This document shows positions 21,821-60,300 of a stretch of 64,000 bases of DNA, in pieces; within the stretch, counting starts at the first letter, position 1, and each line of letters opens with the position of its first letter. Origin of the DNA: a phage; sequence record PV467748.1; one strand, 5' to 3'. The translations under genes were made by a program, and so were the position numbers. Below the pieces are notes generated by a model. That model saw only the letters and a list, made by a program, of their open reading frames with translations, was not told where the DNA came from and ran no database searches.

Positions 21821-22714
21821 TTAAAGGACCACGTCCTCATAACTTGGCATTTCGTGCTCAGAATGGATATGGGCACCGAAATAAATGAATTCAGCTAGAC
21901 CAGGATGGAATACTAAACCAGGATTCTCATGATAAATGATATGAGGTCTTGATTTCAGAATCTGATAATATTCAACCTTACTCGGTTTGAATTTAATAAT
22001 CTCTACATCAGGACGATAGTCTTCACGTTTAAATGAATCATTCGGATCGGTGATATAAAGACGAGCACCTTCAGCTGCAGCTTGGTCTACAACTCTTTCG
22101 AATTGATAGCACTTATCTGAAATACGGAATGGGTGGAAAATACCATCAATTTTAATAGGCGCTAGACCATCAGAGTAACGCTCAATTACTGCAGGATTAA
22201 TTACCTTTTGGTCTACAAAAATCTTATCAGAGGACGCACCTCGTGACACCAGGACGTCTTTCTGGCATTGGTTCAAGACCGTAGTATAAATCGAACGTTC
22301 AACTGAAGACACGTCGGTATCAATAAACTCATCGATGTAATAACGAGGAACTTCAGGGTCCATTGTAATGTTAAAGTTGAATTGTACAGTATGGGCACCA
22401 TCATAACCAGTGATATCGGTTACTAAGCCTGAGCAGTCATAGTATTCTATTAACGAATCAACAACGAACTCATTTTCGGACCAAAAATGTTTACGGGTTT
22501 CATAAGCATTTTCTTTATACCAAAGTGGTACGAAATTCAGTTCTGGGAATAATTCAATGCATTCTTTGATATCGCTCGAATTTCTAGGATAAGCCAGATA
22601 ATCACCTGGGCAAGCACGGTTTAAATGGAGTTGGAAATTACCGTCCTTAAGGACGGCATATTCACCTGTTTCGTAACTACGCATACTGAAAATAGGAACG
22701 ATAAACAAACTCAT
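21821..22714 (-). CDS. hypothetical protein (297 aa) in the beta-glucosyltransferase slot; candidate DNA glycosyl/modification transferase
   Basis: sits between uvsX and 42 where T4 has beta-gt, but does not resemble remembered T4 beta-gt. Confidence 0.3.
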   Translation of the reverse strand: MSLFIVPIFSMRSYETGEYAVLKDGNFQLHLNRACPGDYLAYPRNSSDIKECIELFPELNFVPLWYKENAYETRKHFWSENEFVVDSLIEYYDCSGLVTDITGYDGAHTVQFNFNITMDPEVPRYYIDEFIDTDVSSVERSIYTTVLNQCQKDVLVSRGASSDKIFVDQKVINPAVIERYSDGLAPIKIDGIFHPFRISDKCYQFERVVDQAAAEGARLYITDPNDSFKREDYRPDVEIIKFKPSKVEYYQILKSRPHIIYHENPGLVFHPGLAEFIYFGAHIHSEHEMPSYEDVVL

Positions 22715-23409
22715 TTCAGGAAACCTCGGACGTAGTCAAAATCACGTTCAAACACGTGTGCACTTACCATGGTGTGGGAATATGTACCTAAACCGACACC
22801 ACACTGTTCAGCAATAAAGGCCATCAGTTTACCCTGCAGATAGAAATCCAGCTGCATAACAATAGCACAGTTCTGTGAACGCATATGGGTATGTGCATAA
22901 AGACGTCCATCACGAATATAATATGTTACCGAATCGGTACATGGATATTCTAAGGATTCGTCAGAATCAAGGAGGGCTTGGTCTTGTTCTTGGAGAATCT
23001 GGAACACAACGCGTCTTGAGTTAGGTTTCTCTTTAAGCTCTTTAAGTAGGGCTGGGAGTTGGGCCACAATTCGGGGTCCATAGAAAGTGTTGAAGTTTGC
23101 AGGCAATACGTCACTTTTCGGCTTATCAATGAACTTAGCAACATTAGGATATTCCTTAAATGCTTCGGCGGCGTCAGTACCACCGGAAATCATAAACTTC
23201 CAGAAAGATTCGGCATAATCATAGTTGATACGATTAATACGAGGGTCGGTGAACTTGAATGTGCTTGCATCCAGTACTTCAACTGAAGCAGAACCAATTT
23301 CATAACAACGGCCGATACGAGAATCAACTGCAAACTGTGGAGCTTCCAGGATTTCTTCGTTCATTTGCTTAAACGCGTTTTCAAAACTAACAGCGGTAAT
23401 GTGTTTCAT
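22711..23409 (-). CDS. 42: dCMP hydroxymethylase (thymidylate-synthase fold)
   Basis: EYPCTDSVTYYIRDGRLYAHTHMRSQN aligns with remembered gp42 catalytic-Cys region; NSRRVVFQIL. Confidence 0.7.
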   Translation of the reverse strand: MKHITAVSFENAFKQMNEEILEAPQFAVDSRIGRCYEIGSASVEVLDASTFKFTDPRINRINYDYAESFWKFMISGGTDAAEAFKEYPNVAKFIDKPKSDVLPANFNTFYGPRIVAQLPALLKELKEKPNSRRVVFQILQEQDQALLDSDESLEYPCTDSVTYYIRDGRLYAHTHMRSQNCAIVMQLDFYLQGKLMAFIAEQCGVGLGTYSHTMVSAHVFERDFDYVRGFLK

Positions 23410-23948
23410 TTATTCACCTTATTTTCAATATATTCATTCAGACGTTTTAATTCTACCATATCGACGTTAAGCAAGTTATTATAACCGTCGTGATTTAAGA
23501 TTTTAAACACGTTTTCAAAACATGTTTCATATTGGCGGATAGTTAGGTTGAACTCATCTTTGGTTAATTTAATAAGGTCATCTTCAAAGTCTTTATCCAG
23601 TGGATTACGGGTTAAAATAACCTCAATAATATTGAATTCAGATTTAAACCTTTTCCAATCTTCCAGTTCTACATAAGGGTCCATTTCACCACGAAGGAAT
23701 CCCGAGTAAACAATATTACTTGGATAACCACGGTCAAGGATGTAAACGAAATTAGGGTCTAAAAACTTATACAACGTCTCGACTAAAGCCTTGTCATTAT
23801 CGGTCCCTAATGAAATGCATTTGCCATTAATCTTTTTAGGGAAATCAATAAGACGATATTTCTTATCAGAATCAGATAAAAGCGATTCAATTAAAGTAGA
23901 CTTCCCGGAATTATCCGGGCCGTCGATAACAATGATTTTTGGTTTCAC
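23406..23948 (-). CDS. P-loop nucleotide kinase, thymidylate-kinase-like
   Basis: Walker A IIVIDGPDNSGKSTLI; Tmk-like LDRGYPSNIVYSG motif; no counterpart at this position in T4. Confidence 0.6.
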   Translation of the reverse strand: MKPKIIVIDGPDNSGKSTLIESLLSDSDKKYRLIDFPKKINGKCISLGTDNDKALVETLYKFLDPNFVYILDRGYPSNIVYSGFLRGEMDPYVELEDWKRFKSEFNIIEVILTRNPLDKDFEDDLIKLTKDEFNLTIRQYETCFENVFKILNHDGYNNLLNVDMVELKRLNEYIENKVNK

Positions 23949-24319
23949 GGATGATATGCCTTATAGGTTTCAAGAGTTCCTTCACGAACCATTTCTTTAA
24001 AGTGGTCAGGACGGATTGCTCGGTCATCGATGATAAAAGTATAACTTGGTTTATGCGTAAGCAAATTATGATATTTCAAACCAATCTTTTCAAGGTTCTT
24101 AACCAATGCGGGAACTACTTCAACTAAGATTCGACCCGGGCCGCATGAAGTCATGCCACGAGCAGTGAACAACGTAATCTCGTGGCCTTCATCATAAAGC
24201 TTATTAATCATGGACACCATTTCGGTGTCAGGTTTAAAGTTTTCGTAATCACGATTAGAGTCCCAGACCGTGATTGTGTTATCGATATCAAAACACAGAT
24301 GCATTAAATTTTCTTCCAT
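23945..24319 (-). CDS. HAD-superfamily phosphatase (small, capless)
   Basis: motif I CFDIDNTIT (DxDxT), motif II LFTAR, motif IV IIDD. Confidence 0.6.
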   Translation of the reverse strand: MEENLMHLCFDIDNTITVWDSNRDYENFKPDTEMVSMINKLYDEGHEITLFTARGMTSCGPGRILVEVVPALVKNLEKIGLKYHNLLTHKPSYTFIIDDRAIRPDHFKEMVREGTLETYKAYHP

Positions 24320-26007
24320 TGTTTGTGGAGTTCAGTAGAACCTGTAGGTTTATATTTTACACCGGTTTCCTGGTCAAGCAAAACCCACTTATCAGGACAA
24401 CGAGTGATAATTTGAGCCGTGATAGGGCCACGAACTTCATCGACAAATTCACCTGTAATAAGCTTACGCTTACGAGGATGCCGCTTCAGCAGCACACTCA
24501 GTTGGTATAGACCGTTGTAATAAGCACCCAGAGCTTTCAGAGGATTATTCTTAAAGTAACCTGCCAGTGCCATCCAAATAACGGCAATCCAGAGCTTGTG
24601 CTTAAATGTACACATCGGAATATCATCTAAAGACATAACCTTTTCAATATCAACGAATACACGAGTTCCGTTACGAGTTAATCCGCCCCATAGAGGGTCA
24701 GAGTTAAATTTGTCATAGCCATCGATAGAATAAAGCACCTTAGCTTCGTCATAAATCGCAGGGCCTTTAGAACTATTACCAAAATAACCACGTGGGTCGA
24801 TGATTTTAATATCACCTTCGTCCGACAACATAATATTACTGTAGTGCGGGTCACCATGAATAAGTTGGTATGGTTCTTTATGTTCAGACAGAATTTCTAG
24901 TGCATGGCGAAGAAGTTTTTCAGGGTCGCCTACCTTAAAGTCGTTAACATGGGTAATACCCTGTGGGGCAAAGCCTTCAATCAATCCGGCAATAGAAGCA
25001 TTACGAATCAGGACCTTGTCCAATACTTCTTTCTTAACATCAGAATACCATTGCTCATCGGACGGATTATCGATAGTTCCACCGAATGAACGTAATGCAC
25101 TAATGACCTTATAAACCATGAGGACTTTAGTTTCTTTAGACATAAACCGATAGGCATCTGCCATGGTGCGACCAAAGATACGTTCCATTTTAATGAATTC
25201 GCCTGGAGCAAAGTCTACAATGCTCGGAACAAATTCAGAATCAATAGAATTATACCAATTGATTTCTTTAGATTGGATTTCTTTACCTAATTCGTTGGTA
25301 GGTACTTTAATAGCCAGATTCTCAGTGAACTCTAATTTATTAAATTCACGGTTAATTTCAGAATCTTCATGGGCCCTAGCCAGTTTCAATTTGTCACCGA
25401 CATCAACCACAAAGTCCAGCTTACGTTCAGTCAAATGGACCATCGAATCCAGGTTGTCTGCAAGGTCTTCGCCATAATTAGAACGGTCGAAACCTGTCCA
25501 ATTAGCCACCTGATACAAACCAACCACACCACCGCCAGTACCAATTTCACGCAAGTACGGTTCTTCAAATGTAAAACGACAGTCGGTCCCATAGGTATAA
25601 CAGTAGTCGTTATCCCACTCAACTTTATGACCTTCAGGAATAATATCACACCAGTTAAACAAGACATTATGCCCGATGATATCTTCGGCAATGCAATCGA
25701 TAGCATGAGCTGAACCATTGGCGACGTCTACGTTACGAATAGTGAATTTAGGCTTATCACTGGTAATCATGTTAATGGATTTAATGTAACCCTTAACGAG
25801 GTCATTAAATTTGCTGTGAATAACCAGAATAATTTCATCTGATTGGTTACTATACAAATCATACAAATGTTTTAGTACTGTATGCTGTTTGTAGTTAACC
25901 AATACCTTCGGGATTTCGTTAGTAATTGGATACAACCGTGAGCCAAGACCCGCTCCTAAAATAACAACCTTTTTCATTATCTGTTCCTCAAGTGAATGTA
26001 GGTACAT
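24304..26007 (-). CDS. bifunctional nucleotidyltransferase (N-term) / small-molecule kinase (C-term) fusion, 567 aa
   Basis: N-term VVILGAGLGSRLYPITNEIPKVLV (sugar- or choline-phosphate nucleotidyltransferase signature); C-term HGDPHYSNIML...IKIIDP (APH/choline-kinase-like catalytic loop). Confidence 0.65.
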   Translation of the reverse strand: MYLHSLEEQIMKKVVILGAGLGSRLYPITNEIPKVLVNYKQHTVLKHLYDLYSNQSDEIILVIHSKFNDLVKGYIKSINMITSDKPKFTIRNVDVANGSAHAIDCIAEDIIGHNVLFNWCDIIPEGHKVEWDNDYCYTYGTDCRFTFEEPYLREIGTGGGVVGLYQVANWTGFDRSNYGEDLADNLDSMVHLTERKLDFVVDVGDKLKLARAHEDSEINREFNKLEFTENLAIKVPTNELGKEIQSKEINWYNSIDSEFVPSIVDFAPGEFIKMERIFGRTMADAYRFMSKETKVLMVYKVISALRSFGGTIDNPSDEQWYSDVKKEVLDKVLIRNASIAGLIEGFAPQGITHVNDFKVGDPEKLLRHALEILSEHKEPYQLIHGDPHYSNIMLSDEGDIKIIDPRGYFGNSSKGPAIYDEAKVLYSIDGYDKFNSDPLWGGLTRNGTRVFVDIEKVMSLDDIPMCTFKHKLWIAVIWMALAGYFKNNPLKALGAYYNGLYQLSVLLKRHPRKRKLITGEFVDEVRGPITAQIITRCPDKWVLLDQETGVKYKPTGSTELHKQWKKI

Positions 26008-26037
26008 TATACACTATTTTTAATAAATTGGTATTGC

Positions 26038-26538
26038 TTAAATCTTATCTTTACCGATTTCAATACACTGTTCTATTGCCGCCGGTACTTTGGTCTTGAG
26101 CTTATCGATTTGTTTCTTATAATCACGAGCTTTACCGAAGCTCTCGGTTTCGAGCATTTCGTAATAACGAGCCTCGTGGATGGAAATCTGTAGATTGATA
26201 TGATTTACACACATCGCATACAGTTTCTGCTTTTTGTACAAATCATCTTGACGCTTCATTTCTGCCTGGTGTTTGGCTAGTACCGCTTCACGCTTAGACT
26301 CTTGTTCACGTTGGAATTCGATTTCCCTTTGAGCATATTTTGCACAGTTATTACCGCATTGATTATTAGCTCGGGTATACACAAGTCCGGAACCAGCACG
26401 GAATTTCATTTCACCGTCATATTGTTTCTGTTCAGCTGCGATACGAGCTTTACCAACTTCATCAGCCGAAACTGCATCGCCATATTGGACCGCGCAACCT
26501 GATAGGAGCATACTCATTGCGATAATTAACTTTTTCAT
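26038..26538 (-). CDS. predicted lipoprotein (166 aa)
   Basis: signal peptide with lipobox LSGC; helical, charged remainder. Confidence 0.5.
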   Translation of the reverse strand: MKKLIIAMSMLLSGCAVQYGDAVSADEVGKARIAAEQKQYDGEMKFRAGSGLVYTRANNQCGNNCAKYAQREIEFQREQESKREAVLAKHQAEMKRQDDLYKKQKLYAMCVNHINLQISIHEARYYEMLETESFGKARDYKKQIDKLKTKVPAAIEQCIEIGKDKI

Positions 26539-56848: not shown

Positions 56849-57137
56849 ATTTTTTCCAGTCAGAAATCATATGAATCTCTTGGTCATACGTCAAGAGACT
56901 GCGAGTAATAATACCCTTACACGGCCCAGAGATGAACTCGAGAGTGAAGTAAGGAACCTGTTTCATTAATCGGATGCTTGGGGCATGACATCTAAAACGA
57001 GAGCCCTTAAAGGGCCCTGACATGAATACATATTCTAATGGATAGAAATAAGCATATTCGAAATTTGCAGTAAGGTCCTCTCTTCGAACCTTACGTGAGA
57101 AATAACAGAACTCAAAAAGTTCTTCATCAGTCATCAT
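56841..57137 (-). CDS. hypothetical protein (98 aa)
   Basis: ORF only. Confidence 0.4.
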   Translation of the reverse strand: MMTDEELFEFCYFSRKVRREDLTANFEYAYFYPLEYVFMSGPFKGSRFRCHAPSIRLMKQVPYFTLEFISGPCKGIITRSLLTYDQEIHMISDWKKYV

Positions 57138-57661
57138 TGCATTCCTATCACAAAGAACAGCGGCAGAGGTTTAGAACCCTGGCACATAAATTTGTTAATC
57201 ATTACCTGGTAAGCTTCATAGAACTTATCCATCGATGGAAGGCGCATTGGCTCTTCGATAATAATCAATAATCGAGTAACTGATAGACCACGATACTTAT
57301 GGAAGTTATCTTCGTCTAAAAATGATCGCACGGTATCATATACAATAAACCCAGGACCTTCTACTTGAAGATGTGGATGAGCCTTAGAAACCCTTTTTAT
57401 TACATTACAGATTTCGCGTGACCGGTGCGAAGAACTCGACATAACAATCACATCATTACCCTTGGAAACCCAATCAGCTGCGAACTGGGCAAGGGCACTT
57501 GTTTTACCTGTTTGGCGTCCACCGTCAAGTCGAAGAGTACCAAACTCTTGCATTCTTGAAGTAGGTTCGTACCAGGTGTATTGGTTTGAGTCTAAACGTT
57601 CAATGGCGCGTTCAGCGAAGGCGTGCATTAAGGTTAGATAAATGGGAGTTAAAAATTTCAT
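57134..57661 (-). CDS. P-loop NTPase (175 aa)
   Basis: Walker A GGRQTGKTSA, Walker B LLIIIEEP. Confidence 0.5.
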   Translation of the reverse strand: MKFLTPIYLTLMHAFAERAIERLDSNQYTWYEPTSRMQEFGTLRLDGGRQTGKTSALAQFAADWVSKGNDVIVMSSSSHRSREICNVIKRVSKAHPHLQVEGPGFIVYDTVRSFLDEDNFHKYRGLSVTRLLIIIEEPMRLPSMDKFYEAYQVMINKFMCQGSKPLPLFFVIGMQ

Positions 57662-57810
57662 AGTGGTCTCTTAGTTGTGGGGCCATTCCTTGGCACATAA
57701 TTCATCCCTTTCTGCATTTACCCATTACCGCACTTGGGCTCGACCTTATTACAGGTTGGCGGGAGTCCCTCACAGAATTGTGAGGTCCAGGTTGCTCCCA
57801 TTTTTAAAGA
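57662..57810 (-). other. GC-rich structured intergenic element (possible small RNA or regulatory structure)
   Basis: nested inverted repeats (cctcaca-gaat-tgtgagg flanked by gggag/ctccc and ccgc/gcgg); GC content well above neighbours; no promoter cassette. Confidence 0.25.
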
Positions 57811-58170
57811 TTAAAGATGGTCGAGTGCCGGGTTATGAGGCTTTTCTGCTTTAGCAGTATTTTTGTGCCAATCTGATTTAGAAACACGAATTGCATCCGC
57901 ACCGTAAGAGCTCTTAAGGAGGCCCTTTTTATTGTAAACACTTATAGAAGTAAGGGTGTCACCATTCCAAGTAGCATGGACGAAGTTGGATTTAGATTTA
58001 AGTTCTTTAGCCAGGCTCTGGTTGGTAGCCATGGAAGCAAAGTCTTTACCTGTAACTTTAAAAACTTCAGATGGGTTCAGCCCTTCTTTAGCCTTAGCCA
58101 ATTGTTCAGGAGACATAGCTTCGTTAATGCGCTGAGTAGATTCAGTAATAAATTGTTGGTAAGTTTTCAT
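57811..58170 (-). CDS. internal (capsid-targeted) protein
   Basis: N-terminal MKTYQQFITE matches the T4 internal-protein capsid-targeting sequence. Confidence 0.6.
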   Translation of the reverse strand: MKTYQQFITESTQRINEAMSPEQLAKAKEGLNPSEVFKVTGKDFASMATNQSLAKELKSKSNFVHATWNGDTLTSISVYNKKGLLKSSYGADAIRVSKSDWHKNTAKAEKPHNPALDHL

Positions 58171-58212
58171 ATTATTCCTTAAGTTGATAGAAGTATTCTA
58201 TCACGGATTTAA

Positions 58213-58629
58213 TTAAGCGTAAATAGCCTTGCCGTAATGTTTGTACCAGGTAGGACGCTGTGCAATTTTTTCGTCCAAACGAGCTTGTGAAATGGCGATA
58301 GAAGCTTCGTGAGGAACATAATCACCACGGAATTCCTGAGGAATGTCACTAATGTCCTGGACCGTAGTATCCTTGATATTAAAGCCACGTTTTAAACATT
58401 CAGCTATAAGCTCAATTTGACGCTTACGTAAAAATTCAAGCTTATCATAAAAGAATGTAACGTGGCCTGTACCAAGGATAAAAGTAGGACTGATTTTAAA
58501 ATCACGAACACGTTTACCGTTAGCAACATGCTTACGAACTGCACCGAAAACACGTGGTAATTCACGATATTCGGCCATTAAGTGTTGGTCAGCCAATTCA
58601 GATACTAAGGTAAGGTTGATACGAGTCAT
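58213..58629 (-). CDS. denV: endonuclease V (pyrimidine-dimer DNA glycosylase)
   Basis: 138 aa, near-identical to remembered T4 DenV ([31 protein letters not shown]...). Confidence 0.95.
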
Positions 58630-58680
58630 TTTTAATCTCCTGTAGTTGATAGGTCTATAGTATCATGCCTACAGGAGATG
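58630..58680 (-). promoter_or_regulatory. T4-type early promoter upstream of denV
   Basis: minus GTGTACATCTCCTGTAGGCATGATACTATAGACC with flanking dyad CTCCTGTAG/CTACAGGAG. Confidence 0.55.
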
Positions 58681-58711
58681 TACACTGCTTTTTATCTATA
58701 AGAGGGCTTTA

Positions 58712-59308
58712 TTAATTACCACGGGCTGCATTAGCAACGGCGTAAGCGTACTGAACATTAGCGTCTTTAAACGTACCTTTAGAGGTATCTATTTCTGCCT
58801 TAAAGCCACCTTTAGCCATAACATCAGCAAATTCTTTACGGAAAGCCATTGCATCAAGACCTTTCCATGTTGATTTGTGCTTGGCAAATTCAAGACCGGC
58901 GAAGTTGACAGCCTTAGCCAATTTATTATCAATAGTCCATTTACCTGCTTTAGGTACAACTACCGGGCCTTTCTGTTTAGAGAACAGTTTTAAATTCCAG
59001 CGACGAAGGTCGCCGTCAGCTTTAACAAAAGCTGCGTCCAAGTTACTAGCAACAACATCCTGAATATGGCCAAATTTAAGCCCATCAGCTTCAATATTTA
59101 GGTCGTTACGCCAGCGAAGTCCTTCCCAGGCGAAAGCTTTAAAGTCAGAAGCTTTTGTAGCTAAGTACCGTTCAATAGGAGCTGTTTTAGCATCAAAACC
59201 GTTTCCTGGGCGATCAACGCCGTTTCCTCGGTAAGTCCACTCATCTTTATTAATGCCTTGGACCTTTCCTACAGAAGCTTCGGCGATAAATTCTTTATAC
59301 GTTTTCAT
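58712..59308 (-). CDS. internal (capsid-targeted) protein, 198 aa
   Basis: N-terminal MKTYKEFIAE targeting sequence; early promoter and SD AAGGAA upstream. Confidence 0.6.
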   Translation of the reverse strand: MKTYKEFIAEASVGKVQGINKDEWTYRGNGVDRPGNGFDAKTAPIERYLATKASDFKAFAWEGLRWRNDLNIEADGLKFGHIQDVVASNLDAAFVKADGDLRRWNLKLFSKQKGPVVVPKAGKWTIDNKLAKAVNFAGLEFAKHKSTWKGLDAMAFRKEFADVMAKGGFKAEIDTSKGTFKDANVQYAYAVANAARGN

Positions 59309-59390
59309 ACGGGTTCCTTAAAGGTAAATATTTTAATTGGTCTGTTCAAGTAACTGTATATATACTATCACAATTCTAGGAGATGTAAAC

Positions 59391-59789
59391 TTATTTGTAA
59401 GTTTTCATCCAATTCTTGAACAAAGCCGCGACGTCTTTCTCTTTAACGTTCAGTTTAACGTCCAGCATTTTGCCACCAGCGGCACGTGTCTGACGAATCT
59501 TAGCCGTACCGGTTTCGCCGTTCCACTCAACATAATACTGTCCGGTGTTCATAGCGATACCATCGCCATAGTCTTCATTTTTAGAAGTGGTGAATGCCAG
59601 CTTCATAGTCTTAGATACACGAGCCTGCATGCCTGACTGTAGAGCGTTACGAACGCGAATAACCTGAGGAGTGGCCTGGGTCAGGTTCTCGTTCAGTTCT
59701 TCGGTGAACTCTTCGGATTCGAACATCGCCAAAAGTTCTTTAGATGCAGGAACTACATTCTCTGCGATAAATTCATTATAAGTTTTCAT
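59391..59789 (-). CDS. internal (capsid-targeted) protein, 132 aa
   Basis: N-terminal [10 protein letters not shown]; C-terminus ends ...NWMKTYK. Confidence 0.6.
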
Positions 59790-60270
59790 ATGCTTTCCAA
59801 GTACCTGTTTTAAATGTTGAAATCACGCGCTTAGCACGGTTAGGAGTTTGCTTGTACCAACGAGATTGAGCCAGGTTAACTGCCGCATCGTTCCAACGTT
59901 TCTGTTGGAGCATACGTAAAGAGTTAGTGAACCCTGCTACACCTGCTTCACCCATTTGGAAGACCATATTAATCAATGCGCAACGACGAACTTCGTCCAA
60001 CACATCATAAACCGGTTTCAATTTAGGATTACGCATTATAGCTCTACGAGCATTTTCCACTGAACGATTAAAGAGTTGTTCGGCTTCAGCCATAGTAATA
60101 CGACCATTACAAACTCGACCCATAAGCTTATCAAGTTCAGCGCGGGCAACATCTTTAGATGGGTTCTTGGTAACTAACTGGCCAATACCAATAGTCCAAT
60201 AACCTTCAGTGTCTTTATAAAGATTTAAATCAAGACCTTCGTCTTGACGTAACATATCAAAAATATCCAT
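59776..60270 (-). CDS. e: lysozyme (endolysin, T4 e type)
   Basis: 164 aa; [23 protein letters not shown]...[29 protein letters not shown] collinear with remembered T4 lysozyme. Confidence 0.95.
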
Positions 60271-60300
60271 AATACCTCCTGAGTATAGGAGGTATTTATA
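60271..60300 (-). promoter_or_regulatory. late promoter TATAAATA plus SD-sequestering hairpin for e
   Basis: plus tatttata at 60293-60300; inverted repeat cctcct-gagtat-aggagg at 60275-60292 pairs the SD with an upstream anti-SD. Confidence 0.6.

Follow-up and report, generated by a model that had tools for sequence, protein, structure and literature searches.

A candidate internal-protein locus downstream of lysozyme gene e

We analyzed a 64,000-nucleotide (nt) stretch of phage DNA (sequence record PV467748.1; the window), and in particular a group of minus-strand open reading frames (ORFs) just downstream of the lysozyme gene e, three of which begin with MKTY(N/K/Q)(E/Q)FI(A/T)E, the type of capsid-targeting sequence (tag) carried by T4 internal proteins. 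These ORFs, of 132, 198 and 119 amino acids (aa), are found on both sides of denV, two between e and denV and the third just past denV, giving the minus-strand order e, 132-aa ORF, 198-aa ORF, denV, 119-aa ORF, vs.8 (Table 1). Dhakavirus (JS98-like T-even) genomes are ~94% identical to the window, with WG01 the closest. A sequence-only reading of this DNA had drawn attention to the three ORFs with this N-terminus, and both their coordinates and their sequences are as it described.

The sequence ATGAAAACNTA occurs four times in the 64 kb, always at this locus, i.e., at the three ORF starts and as an in-frame copy near the stop codon of the 132-aa ORF, and a looser tag pattern run across the window returned no further candidates. 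We observe directly that the tag is conserved: Y4, F7, I8 and E10 are retained in 3/3 tags, and mutagenesis of T4 IPIII assigned positions 4 and 7 to targeting and positions 8 and 10 to processing (Mullaney & Black 1996, as cited in PMC9026906). The last two of these residues form the (L/I)-x-E motif of the prohead protease gp21 at the end of each tag (I8-x-E10), and additional candidate gp21 sites are present at I15-N-E17 of the 119-aa protein and at an invariant L32-N-E34 in the 132-aa family. Beyond the tag, the mature parts of the three proteins are mutually dissimilar (pairwise BLASTP E-values all at least 1.9), in agreement with the earlier claim that these proteins are otherwise unrelated. 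The 198-aa ORF is an IPIII orthologue, matching phrog_5341 over residues 1-198 (E=1.3e-114) with 87% identity to T4 IPIII; the 119-aa and 132-aa ORFs match the phrog_5341 profile via the tag only or not at all, and are labelled “hypothetical” in relatives. This orthology, together with the four tag determinants kept in all three proteins, supports the proposal of the sequence-only reading that these are genes of the internal-protein type. By analogy with T4, the tag would carry each protein into the scaffolding core of the prohead, gp21 would then cut the tag off after Glu10 at the I-x-E motif, and the mature proteins would be injected along with the DNA. The 132-aa and 119-aa proteins would then be further, so far unannotated internal-protein families.

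Table 1. Features of the locus between e and vs.8, with positions in the window
Feature	Position	Strand	Description
Lysozyme gene e	60270..59776	minus	164 aa; Pfam Phage_lysozyme; context gene
132-aa ORF, candidate internal protein	59789..59391	minus	phrog_15461, unknown function; tag, variable linker and conserved core; mature part 13.7 kDa, isoelectric point (pI) 8.8
Capsid-targeting sequence of the 132-aa gene	59760..59789	minus	I-A-E protease motif at residues 8-10
In-frame tail ATGAAAACTTACAAATAA (MKTYK*)	59391..59408	minus	first 11 nt, ATGAAAACTTA, repeat the 132-aa gene's own start; GTTTAC directly next
T4-early-type promoter-like element	59362..59390	minus	GTTTACA, 16-17 nt spacer, TAGTAT; upstream of ipIII; 3′ border of the 132-aa cassette
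198-aa ORF, IPIII orthologue	59308..58712	minus	tag MKTYKEFIAE; phrog_5341; mature part 20.7 kDa, pI 9.65
Promoter and stem-loop element (PeSL-like)	58630..58711	minus	upstream of denV; GTGTAC...TACTAT; 11-bp stem AUCUCCUGUAG/CUACAGGAGAU including the denV ribosome-binding site
denV (endonuclease V, pyrimidine-dimer glycosylase)	58629..58213	minus	Pfam Pyr_excise; conserved; divides the internal-protein cluster
Promoter-like element	58195..58223	minus	TTTACG, 17 nt spacer, TAGAAT; overlaps the denV stop codon; upstream of the 119-aa gene
119-aa ORF, candidate internal protein	58170..57811	minus	phrog_3966, unknown function; tag MKTYQQFITE; mature part 11.9 kDa, pI 9.5
Spacer between the 119-aa gene and vs.8	57662..57810	minus	holds the conserved GGGAGCAACC...CTCCC stem region
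vs.8	57661..57134	minus	175 aa

Compared with the start site of vs.8 in T4, that of the window's vs.8 is ~65 nt further downstream. A scan of positions 56-64 kb against Rfam gave no match.

Exchange of tagged cassettes among related phages

A comparison of this locus across related phages, which the sequence-only reading had proposed as a check, showed that the cassettes are clearly swapped among relatives. Using a set of 15 related loci, with arrangements counted in 11 genomes, we find six tagged families between e and vs.8 (132, 198/IPIII, 100/IPII, 119, 99/ip7 and 85 aa) whose presence, absence and order all vary, giving nine arrangements in the 11 genomes (Table 2). For example, the 132-aa cassette occupies two positions, one in window-type and one in JS98-type genomes, and the sequence common to both starts exactly at the tag ATG, since what precedes the ATG is the coding sequence of e in one position and a ribosome-binding region in the other. 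This common sequence stops at TAAGTTTAC-TCTCCT, the -35 box of a T4-early-type promoter, so that the cassette edges are located at the tag (5′) and at the promoter box GTTTAC (3′).

Table 2. Order of genes downstream of e; numbers are the lengths (aa) of the tagged proteins
Phage	Arrangement
Window	e, 132, 198, denV, 119
WG01	e, 132, 198, denV, 119, plus 85
AnYang	e, 132, 198, 100, denV, 119, 99
KIT01	e, 132, 100, denV, 119, 99
QL01	e, 132, 198, denV, 99
IME281	e, 132, denV, 99
JS98 / JS10	e, 198, 132, denV, 99
fDHCT2	e, 198, 100, denV, 99
T4	e, 193, 100, denV
VR5	e, 189, 99, denV

The 30 nt that encode the tag are identical at 22-26 of 30 positions between the three unrelated cassettes of the window, and neighbouring cassettes in AnYang share up to 42 identical nt, ribosome-binding site included; the homology reported to be needed for T4 recombination is <50 bp (PMC2839356). 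Each cassette begins with a ribosome-binding site followed by the tag and ends, on the 3′ side, at a T4-early-type promoter (GTTTAC…), and differing cassette sets and orders are what homologous recombination in such short conserved borders should produce. The 5′ border at the ATG, as defined by this comparison of sequences, suggests tag-linked recombination and is better evidence for it than the C-terminal tail of the 132-aa protein described below.

We also observed that the tag of the 119-aa gene in AnYang is that of the 99-aa cassette, MKTYQEFITE, which is identical at 30/30 nt, as are 12 nt upstream (AnYang 2362-2391 vs KIT01 2362-2391), unlike the 119-aa genes of the window, WG01 and KIT01, which encode MKTYQQFITE. 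A crossover or gene conversion where tag and core meet could account for this, or the AnYang gene could just be a more diverged allele.

Distribution, predicted processing and fold of the 132-aa and 119-aa families

The 132-aa family is present in 50 phage records (phages of E. coli, Klebsiella, Serratia and Erwinia), with members in Dhakavirus and in Marfa-like Klebsiella phages, and with ~50%-identical homologues in Serratia and Erwinia phages. Its gene directly follows e in nearly all records, with an overlap of 14 nt in window-type phages, in Marfa and in two metagenomic contigs, and of 4 nt in WSPA; the Cronus homologue is located 8 nt downstream of e. For the 119-aa family we found 90 records, 13 of them close and 77 distant (31-33% identity). 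One distant record that we inspected, from Mosigvirus LH01, places the homologue just downstream of denV, and Marfa has IPIII at this side of denV; tagged genes flanking denV on both sides are thus common outside T4.

The four residues L32-N33-E34-N35 (window 59686-59697) are invariant in the 132-aa family, where residues 11-30 vary or, in distant members, are deleted. From this conservation L32-N33-E34 is probably a second gp21 cleavage site, in which case the mature 132-aa protein would begin at N35. The precursor of T4 IPI has 95 residues. Mature T4 IPI has 76, a precedent for further processing (PMC3012670).

Sequence searches with these two proteins returned several marginal matches. A match of the 132-aa protein to the target-recognition domain of M.HhaI in a PDB sequence search (E=0.008) was lost when the family profile was used, an equally marginal match to flagellin appearing instead; both were treated as noise, and a match of the 119-aa protein to 9hnh is a repeat-protein artefact. 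An exhaustive profile search with the 119-aa protein recovered two family clusters and marginal repeat matches only. These marginal matches (library E ~3e-4 to 6e-4) place residues 43-105 against P0021 (841 aa) and P0020 (2797 aa), where the matched unit is a repeat of ~50 residues, W..ES.SY.VA.KKGWL...DW, found in an RTX protein and, towards the C-terminus, in a helicase-like protein; the likeness may be noise or may reflect a shared small beta domain.

The end of gene e and the C-terminal tail of the 132-aa protein

In the window, the first 14 nt of the 132-aa ORF (59776-59789) are also the last 14 nt of e, which, as in other phages with this overlap, ends in AYENL* because its 3′ end, gcaTATGAAAACTTATAA, contains the tag ATG and the first tag codons in another frame. 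The end of e differs between phages and depends on what comes next: AYKNL* in T4 and VR5 (TATAAAAATCTATAA), AAYR* in JS98, JS10 and fDHCT2, AYI* in LH01, and AYK* in Cronus and WSPA. As the T4 e end TATAAAAATCTATAA is identical to the tag start at 12 of 15 positions, the likeness of a T4-like e end to the tag start may have favoured fusion at this site.

At its other end, the 132-aa ORF terminates in ...FKNWMKTYK*, with an in-frame ATGAAAACTTAC at 59408..59397 that starts 15 nt before the TAA stop (59393..59391). The presence of this ending, with a copy resembling the tag start 15 nt from the stop codon, had been noted in the sequence-only reading and is borne out; its interpretation there as the footprint of a cassette swap is not, as the tail is family-wide, independent of the neighbouring gene, and also found in Klebsiella and Serratia phages. 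All copies of the 132-aa family at the loci we compared have the tail whether ipIII, ipII or denV follows, and therefore it is old and not the footprint of a swap in this genome. In Klebsiella phages it varies (MKSYK, MKTHK, MKVHK, and the synonymous ATGAAGACCTAT). Serratia phage WSPA (53% protein identity) ends in WMKTYAK* and has the same 15 nt, TGGATGAAAACTTAC, where the genes are only 61% identical, and two other homologues of this short clade end in WLKK* and WLK*. A neighbour-joining tree groups WSPA with one of these two homologues, and the tail is therefore either ancestral and trimmed twice, or re-templated. When viral contigs were scanned for tag starts directly before GTTTAC, the matches listed were mostly random, and those among them at T4-like loci were all tails of the 132-aa family.

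We conclude that the 132-aa family inherited its tail long ago and that the tail may be a relic of recombination; the evidence on its origin is divided. We give roughly even odds to an ancient scar of recombination involving the start of a targeting sequence, left either by single-crossover insertion of a cassette at the tag-like 3′ end of e, duplicating ATGAAAACTTA around the core, or by a downstream cassette that lost everything between codon 4 and the final Lys-stop. An MKTY within the last 8 residues of any of three ORFs has a chance expectation of ~9e-5, and the exact 12-mer ATGAAAACTTAC occurs twice in the window against 0.024 expected; the tail also falls exactly at the 3′ border of the cassette, where AAA-TAA/TAG followed by GTTTAC is the usual end of an internal-protein cassette, and ATGAAAACTTA forms a direct repeat on both sides of the 132-aa core. 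The natural e end of T4, already similar to the tag start, and the 15 nt retained in WSPA are consistent with such a scar. A variant of this model, derivation from a displaced original e end (Y-K-stop and GTTTAC), relies on a low-complexity likeness and is not decisive. However, the likeness to the tag ends at residue 4-5, the Met and Lys positions are matched in the WLKK*/WLK* homologues, variation in the tail is of the kind seen in any coding sequence, a scan of 11 Dhakavirus/T4 loci for tag starts found no second remnant of this sort, and there is no parental, unrecombined form for comparison because the tail is family-wide and independent of context. The alternative is that the tail is the native end of a C-terminal amphipathic helix whose resemblance to the tag is coincidental, to which we assign a real if somewhat smaller than even chance: a low-confidence structural model predicts a helix at residues 117-130 that includes the tail, W127, K129 and K132 are nearly invariant in the family, the distant homologues have W-L-K-(K)-stop, and, given MKTY, the nucleotide identity adds little, as relatives use other codons. 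Against coincidence, the a priori probability of a four-residue match at this place is very low, T and Y are dispensable in two homologues, and the match falls in the very family whose 5′ tag is fused into e. It is highly improbable, in our view, that the tail copy and the tag start in the e end are kept as a landing site for recombination, like an integron attachment site. In that case the short direct repeat ATGAAAACTTA would let tagged cassettes be captured, or excised as circles, beside the lysozyme gene, and this would explain why the Serratia-phage homologue has the same 15 nt.

Promoter-like elements and stem-loops between the cassettes

A promoter-like box is found ahead of each of three genes, ipIII, denV and the 119-aa gene. 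Folding is strongest in the element upstream of denV (-19.1 kcal/mol, z=-2.8). A weak hairpin forms before the 119-aa gene (z=-2.0), and before ipIII the promoter comes with no significant structure (z=+1.2). A GTTTACA-type early element directly follows e in JS98, JS10, fDHCT2 and T4, and the element upstream of the 119-aa gene is kept in relatives upstream of whichever cassette follows denV. On the right side of the locus, the stem region GGGAGCAACCTGGACCTCACAATTCTGTGAGGGACTCCC and the next ~40 nt directly follow the denV stop in T4 and VR5; the stem region located 3′ of the 119-aa gene therefore marks the right edge of an insertion site downstream of denV. The first part of this stem region gives way to a different stem-forming sequence in phages that have the 99-aa cassette.

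The only exact late-promoter box in the locus is a canonical T4 late promoter, TATAAATA, at 60300. It is followed by a hairpin, CCTCCTATACTCAGGAGG, that covers the e ribosome-binding site (60262-60300), and a late promoter with a hairpin over the ribosome-binding site is the known arrangement of T4 e.

Proposed anti-restriction function and probable DNA modification

Different GmrSD targets have been demonstrated for Ip1, Ip2 and Ip3 of T4, each of which blocks one of these type IV restriction enzymes: IPI inhibits GmrSD, and Ip2 and Ip3 were shown in 2025 to block two other variants, with cross-protection absent; the same authors propose a similar role for other proteins of internal-protein loci (PMC12373910). 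In addition, IPIII is required to infect ECOR17 (bioRxiv 10.1101/2022.04.14.488369). The suggestion of the sequence-only reading that the tagged proteins are injected anti-defence factors fits these T4 results (PMC12373910); it can be extended with some reason to the IPIII orthologue and is speculative for the 132-aa and 119-aa proteins.

Between uvsX and gene 43 (window 21821-26538, minus strand) we identified genes encoding a thymidylate-synthase homologue (232 aa), a kinase-like protein, and a 567-aa fusion of a nucleotidyltransferase and an APH kinase, and the WG01 annotation lists no alpha-glucosyltransferase gene where T4 has a-gt. The arabinosyl-5-hydroxycytosine pathway has been reported for RB69, a cytosine-arabinosylation cluster has been predicted for Dhakaviruses (PMC13326640), and arabinosylated DNA is cut by a GmrSD-family enzyme (PMC13390438). 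Since the cluster in the window matches the arabinosyl-5-hydroxycytosine pathway and WG01 lacks an annotated a-gt, the DNA of this phage is probably arabinosylated, not glucosylated. By analogy, the T4 Ip1-3 targets, the arabinosylation cluster and the cutting by GmrSD make an anti-type-IV role reasonable for the 132-aa and 119-aa proteins, whose likeliest job would be to block GmrSD-like type IV enzymes that attack sugar-modified phage DNA.

Proposed packaging and the route of cassette exchange

Taken together, we consider it very likely that this is the main internal-protein locus of a Dhakavirus, encoding small basic proteins that are tagged, injected and shuffled, with the tail of the 132-aa protein being inherited. 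The genes present, the conserved tag, the IPIII orthology, the polymorphism of the cassettes and the place of their borders are seen directly; for the 132-aa and 119-aa families we infer packaging, processing, injection and an anti-restriction function. Several observations weigh against this. Our literature search found no report of virion proteomics for either family, and thus no direct virion evidence; Pfam identified no domain in any of the three tagged proteins; and the AlphaFold2 (AF2) models gave no recognisable fold, as that of the 132-aa protein (predicted local distance difference test score, pLDDT, 53) is too poor for a structure search and that of the 119-aa protein (pLDDT 68) had no PDB match and, in BFVD, matched its own family only. 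Because the sole late promoter is upstream of e, we assume from T4 that the 198-aa and 119-aa genes are expressed late. An anti-GmrSD role for the 132-aa and 119-aa proteins is an extrapolation from three T4 proteins with which they share no sequence. Finally, not every cassette difference ends at the tag. For example, WG01 (85 aa; locus 1712-1969) and AnYang and KIT01 (99 aa) have an extra tagged cassette after the 119-aa gene that the window does not have, and this difference is bounded by two stop-codon contexts (…TTTAA|…|TTAA…), not by the tag. The missing proteomic evidence and fold, and upstream promoters of the early and not the late type, would suit 119-aa and 132-aa proteins that are tag-like but neither packaged nor injected, and act in the cytoplasm of the producing cell. 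We regard this as very unlikely, since 4/4 functional tag residues are kept, the tag is invariant across family members that are ~50% diverged, ten tag residues alone are enough to package foreign proteins in T4 (PMC9026906), and T4 IPIII and IPII are also found behind similar early-type promoters.

An alternative for the exchange itself is that it is driven mainly by intergenic promoter/stem-loop elements (PeSL-type), with the tag conserved only for packaging. The promoter-like boxes flanking the 198-aa, denV and 119-aa units, the strong stem-loop at denV, the coincidence of GTTTAC with the 3′ cassette borders, and the right side of the 85/99-aa cassette difference, which is not at the tag, are all compatible with this, and PeSL-like elements have been noted at internal-protein loci (PMC2839356, PMC4122927). 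However, the 132-aa cassette of window-type genomes has no 5′ promoter or spacer and starts inside e, and the same cassette is located behind ipIII in JS98 and JS10, so that its 5′ junction must lie in the tag; in addition, between adjacent cassettes such as 119|99 and 198|100 there is just a ribosome-binding site (8-40 nt) and no promoter. We consider an exchange driven mainly by these elements less likely, and favour borders formed by the tag at the 5′ end and the promoter box at the 3′ end.

Relation to known systems

Injected internal proteins are a first-response counter-defence that helps to set which wild E. coli a T-even phage infects. GmrSD targets are now known for all three T4 examples. 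As likely injected effectors, the 132-aa and 119-aa families offer specific candidates to put through anti-restriction screens, above all for Dhakavirus and Klebsiella phages of therapeutic relevance, which have arabinose and not glucose on their DNA. This type of locus and the idea of shuffling were already published in 1994-2010, and what is added here is two unannotated tagged families; the gain is thus incremental, because the framework of tagged cassettes shuffled at a hot spot was already established.

The locus resembles T4 IPI, IPII and IPIII in the 10-residue tag with its I-x-E site, in the small basic mature proteins, and in the neighbourhood e - ipIII - ipII - denV. Genes of this type occupy two loci, this e-denV region and one near gene 57B/ipI. 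Unlike these, the 132-aa and 119-aa proteins resemble the T4 proteins in the tag only, the window has a tagged gene downstream of denV where T4 has none, and the 132-aa gene overlaps e where T4 has an 85-nt promoter-bearing spacer after e. In polymorphic T-even internal-protein loci, unrelated tagged genes are likewise swapped at two fixed loci, with early-promoter/stem-loop elements between them. Such loci, their shuffling and a role in host range were described by Repoila 1994 and Comeau 2007 (>30 variants), as cited in PMC2839356 and PMC4122927; the 132-aa and 119-aa families may be among these variants and are annotated as hypothetical in public records. The PeSL cassettes (Arbiol et al. 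2010; Comeau et al. 2014) are also alike in that conserved intergenic promoter/stem-loop units flank non-essential genes and serve as recombination sites, and the consensus TTTACW-N17-TAYWAT (PST/T4 pair) fits the elements at the window locus; they are unlike in that several 5′ cassette borders here are coding sequence, i.e., the tag, and a strong stem is found at the denV-upstream element only. Compared with T4 Ip1, Ip2 and Ip3 as GmrSD inhibitors (Nat Commun 2025), this phage differs in that it probably has arabinosylated 5-hydroxycytosine, not glucosyl-hydroxymethylcytosine, and it shares with T4 the same locus, IPIII, and sugar-modified cytosines as the substrate class of the GmrSD family.

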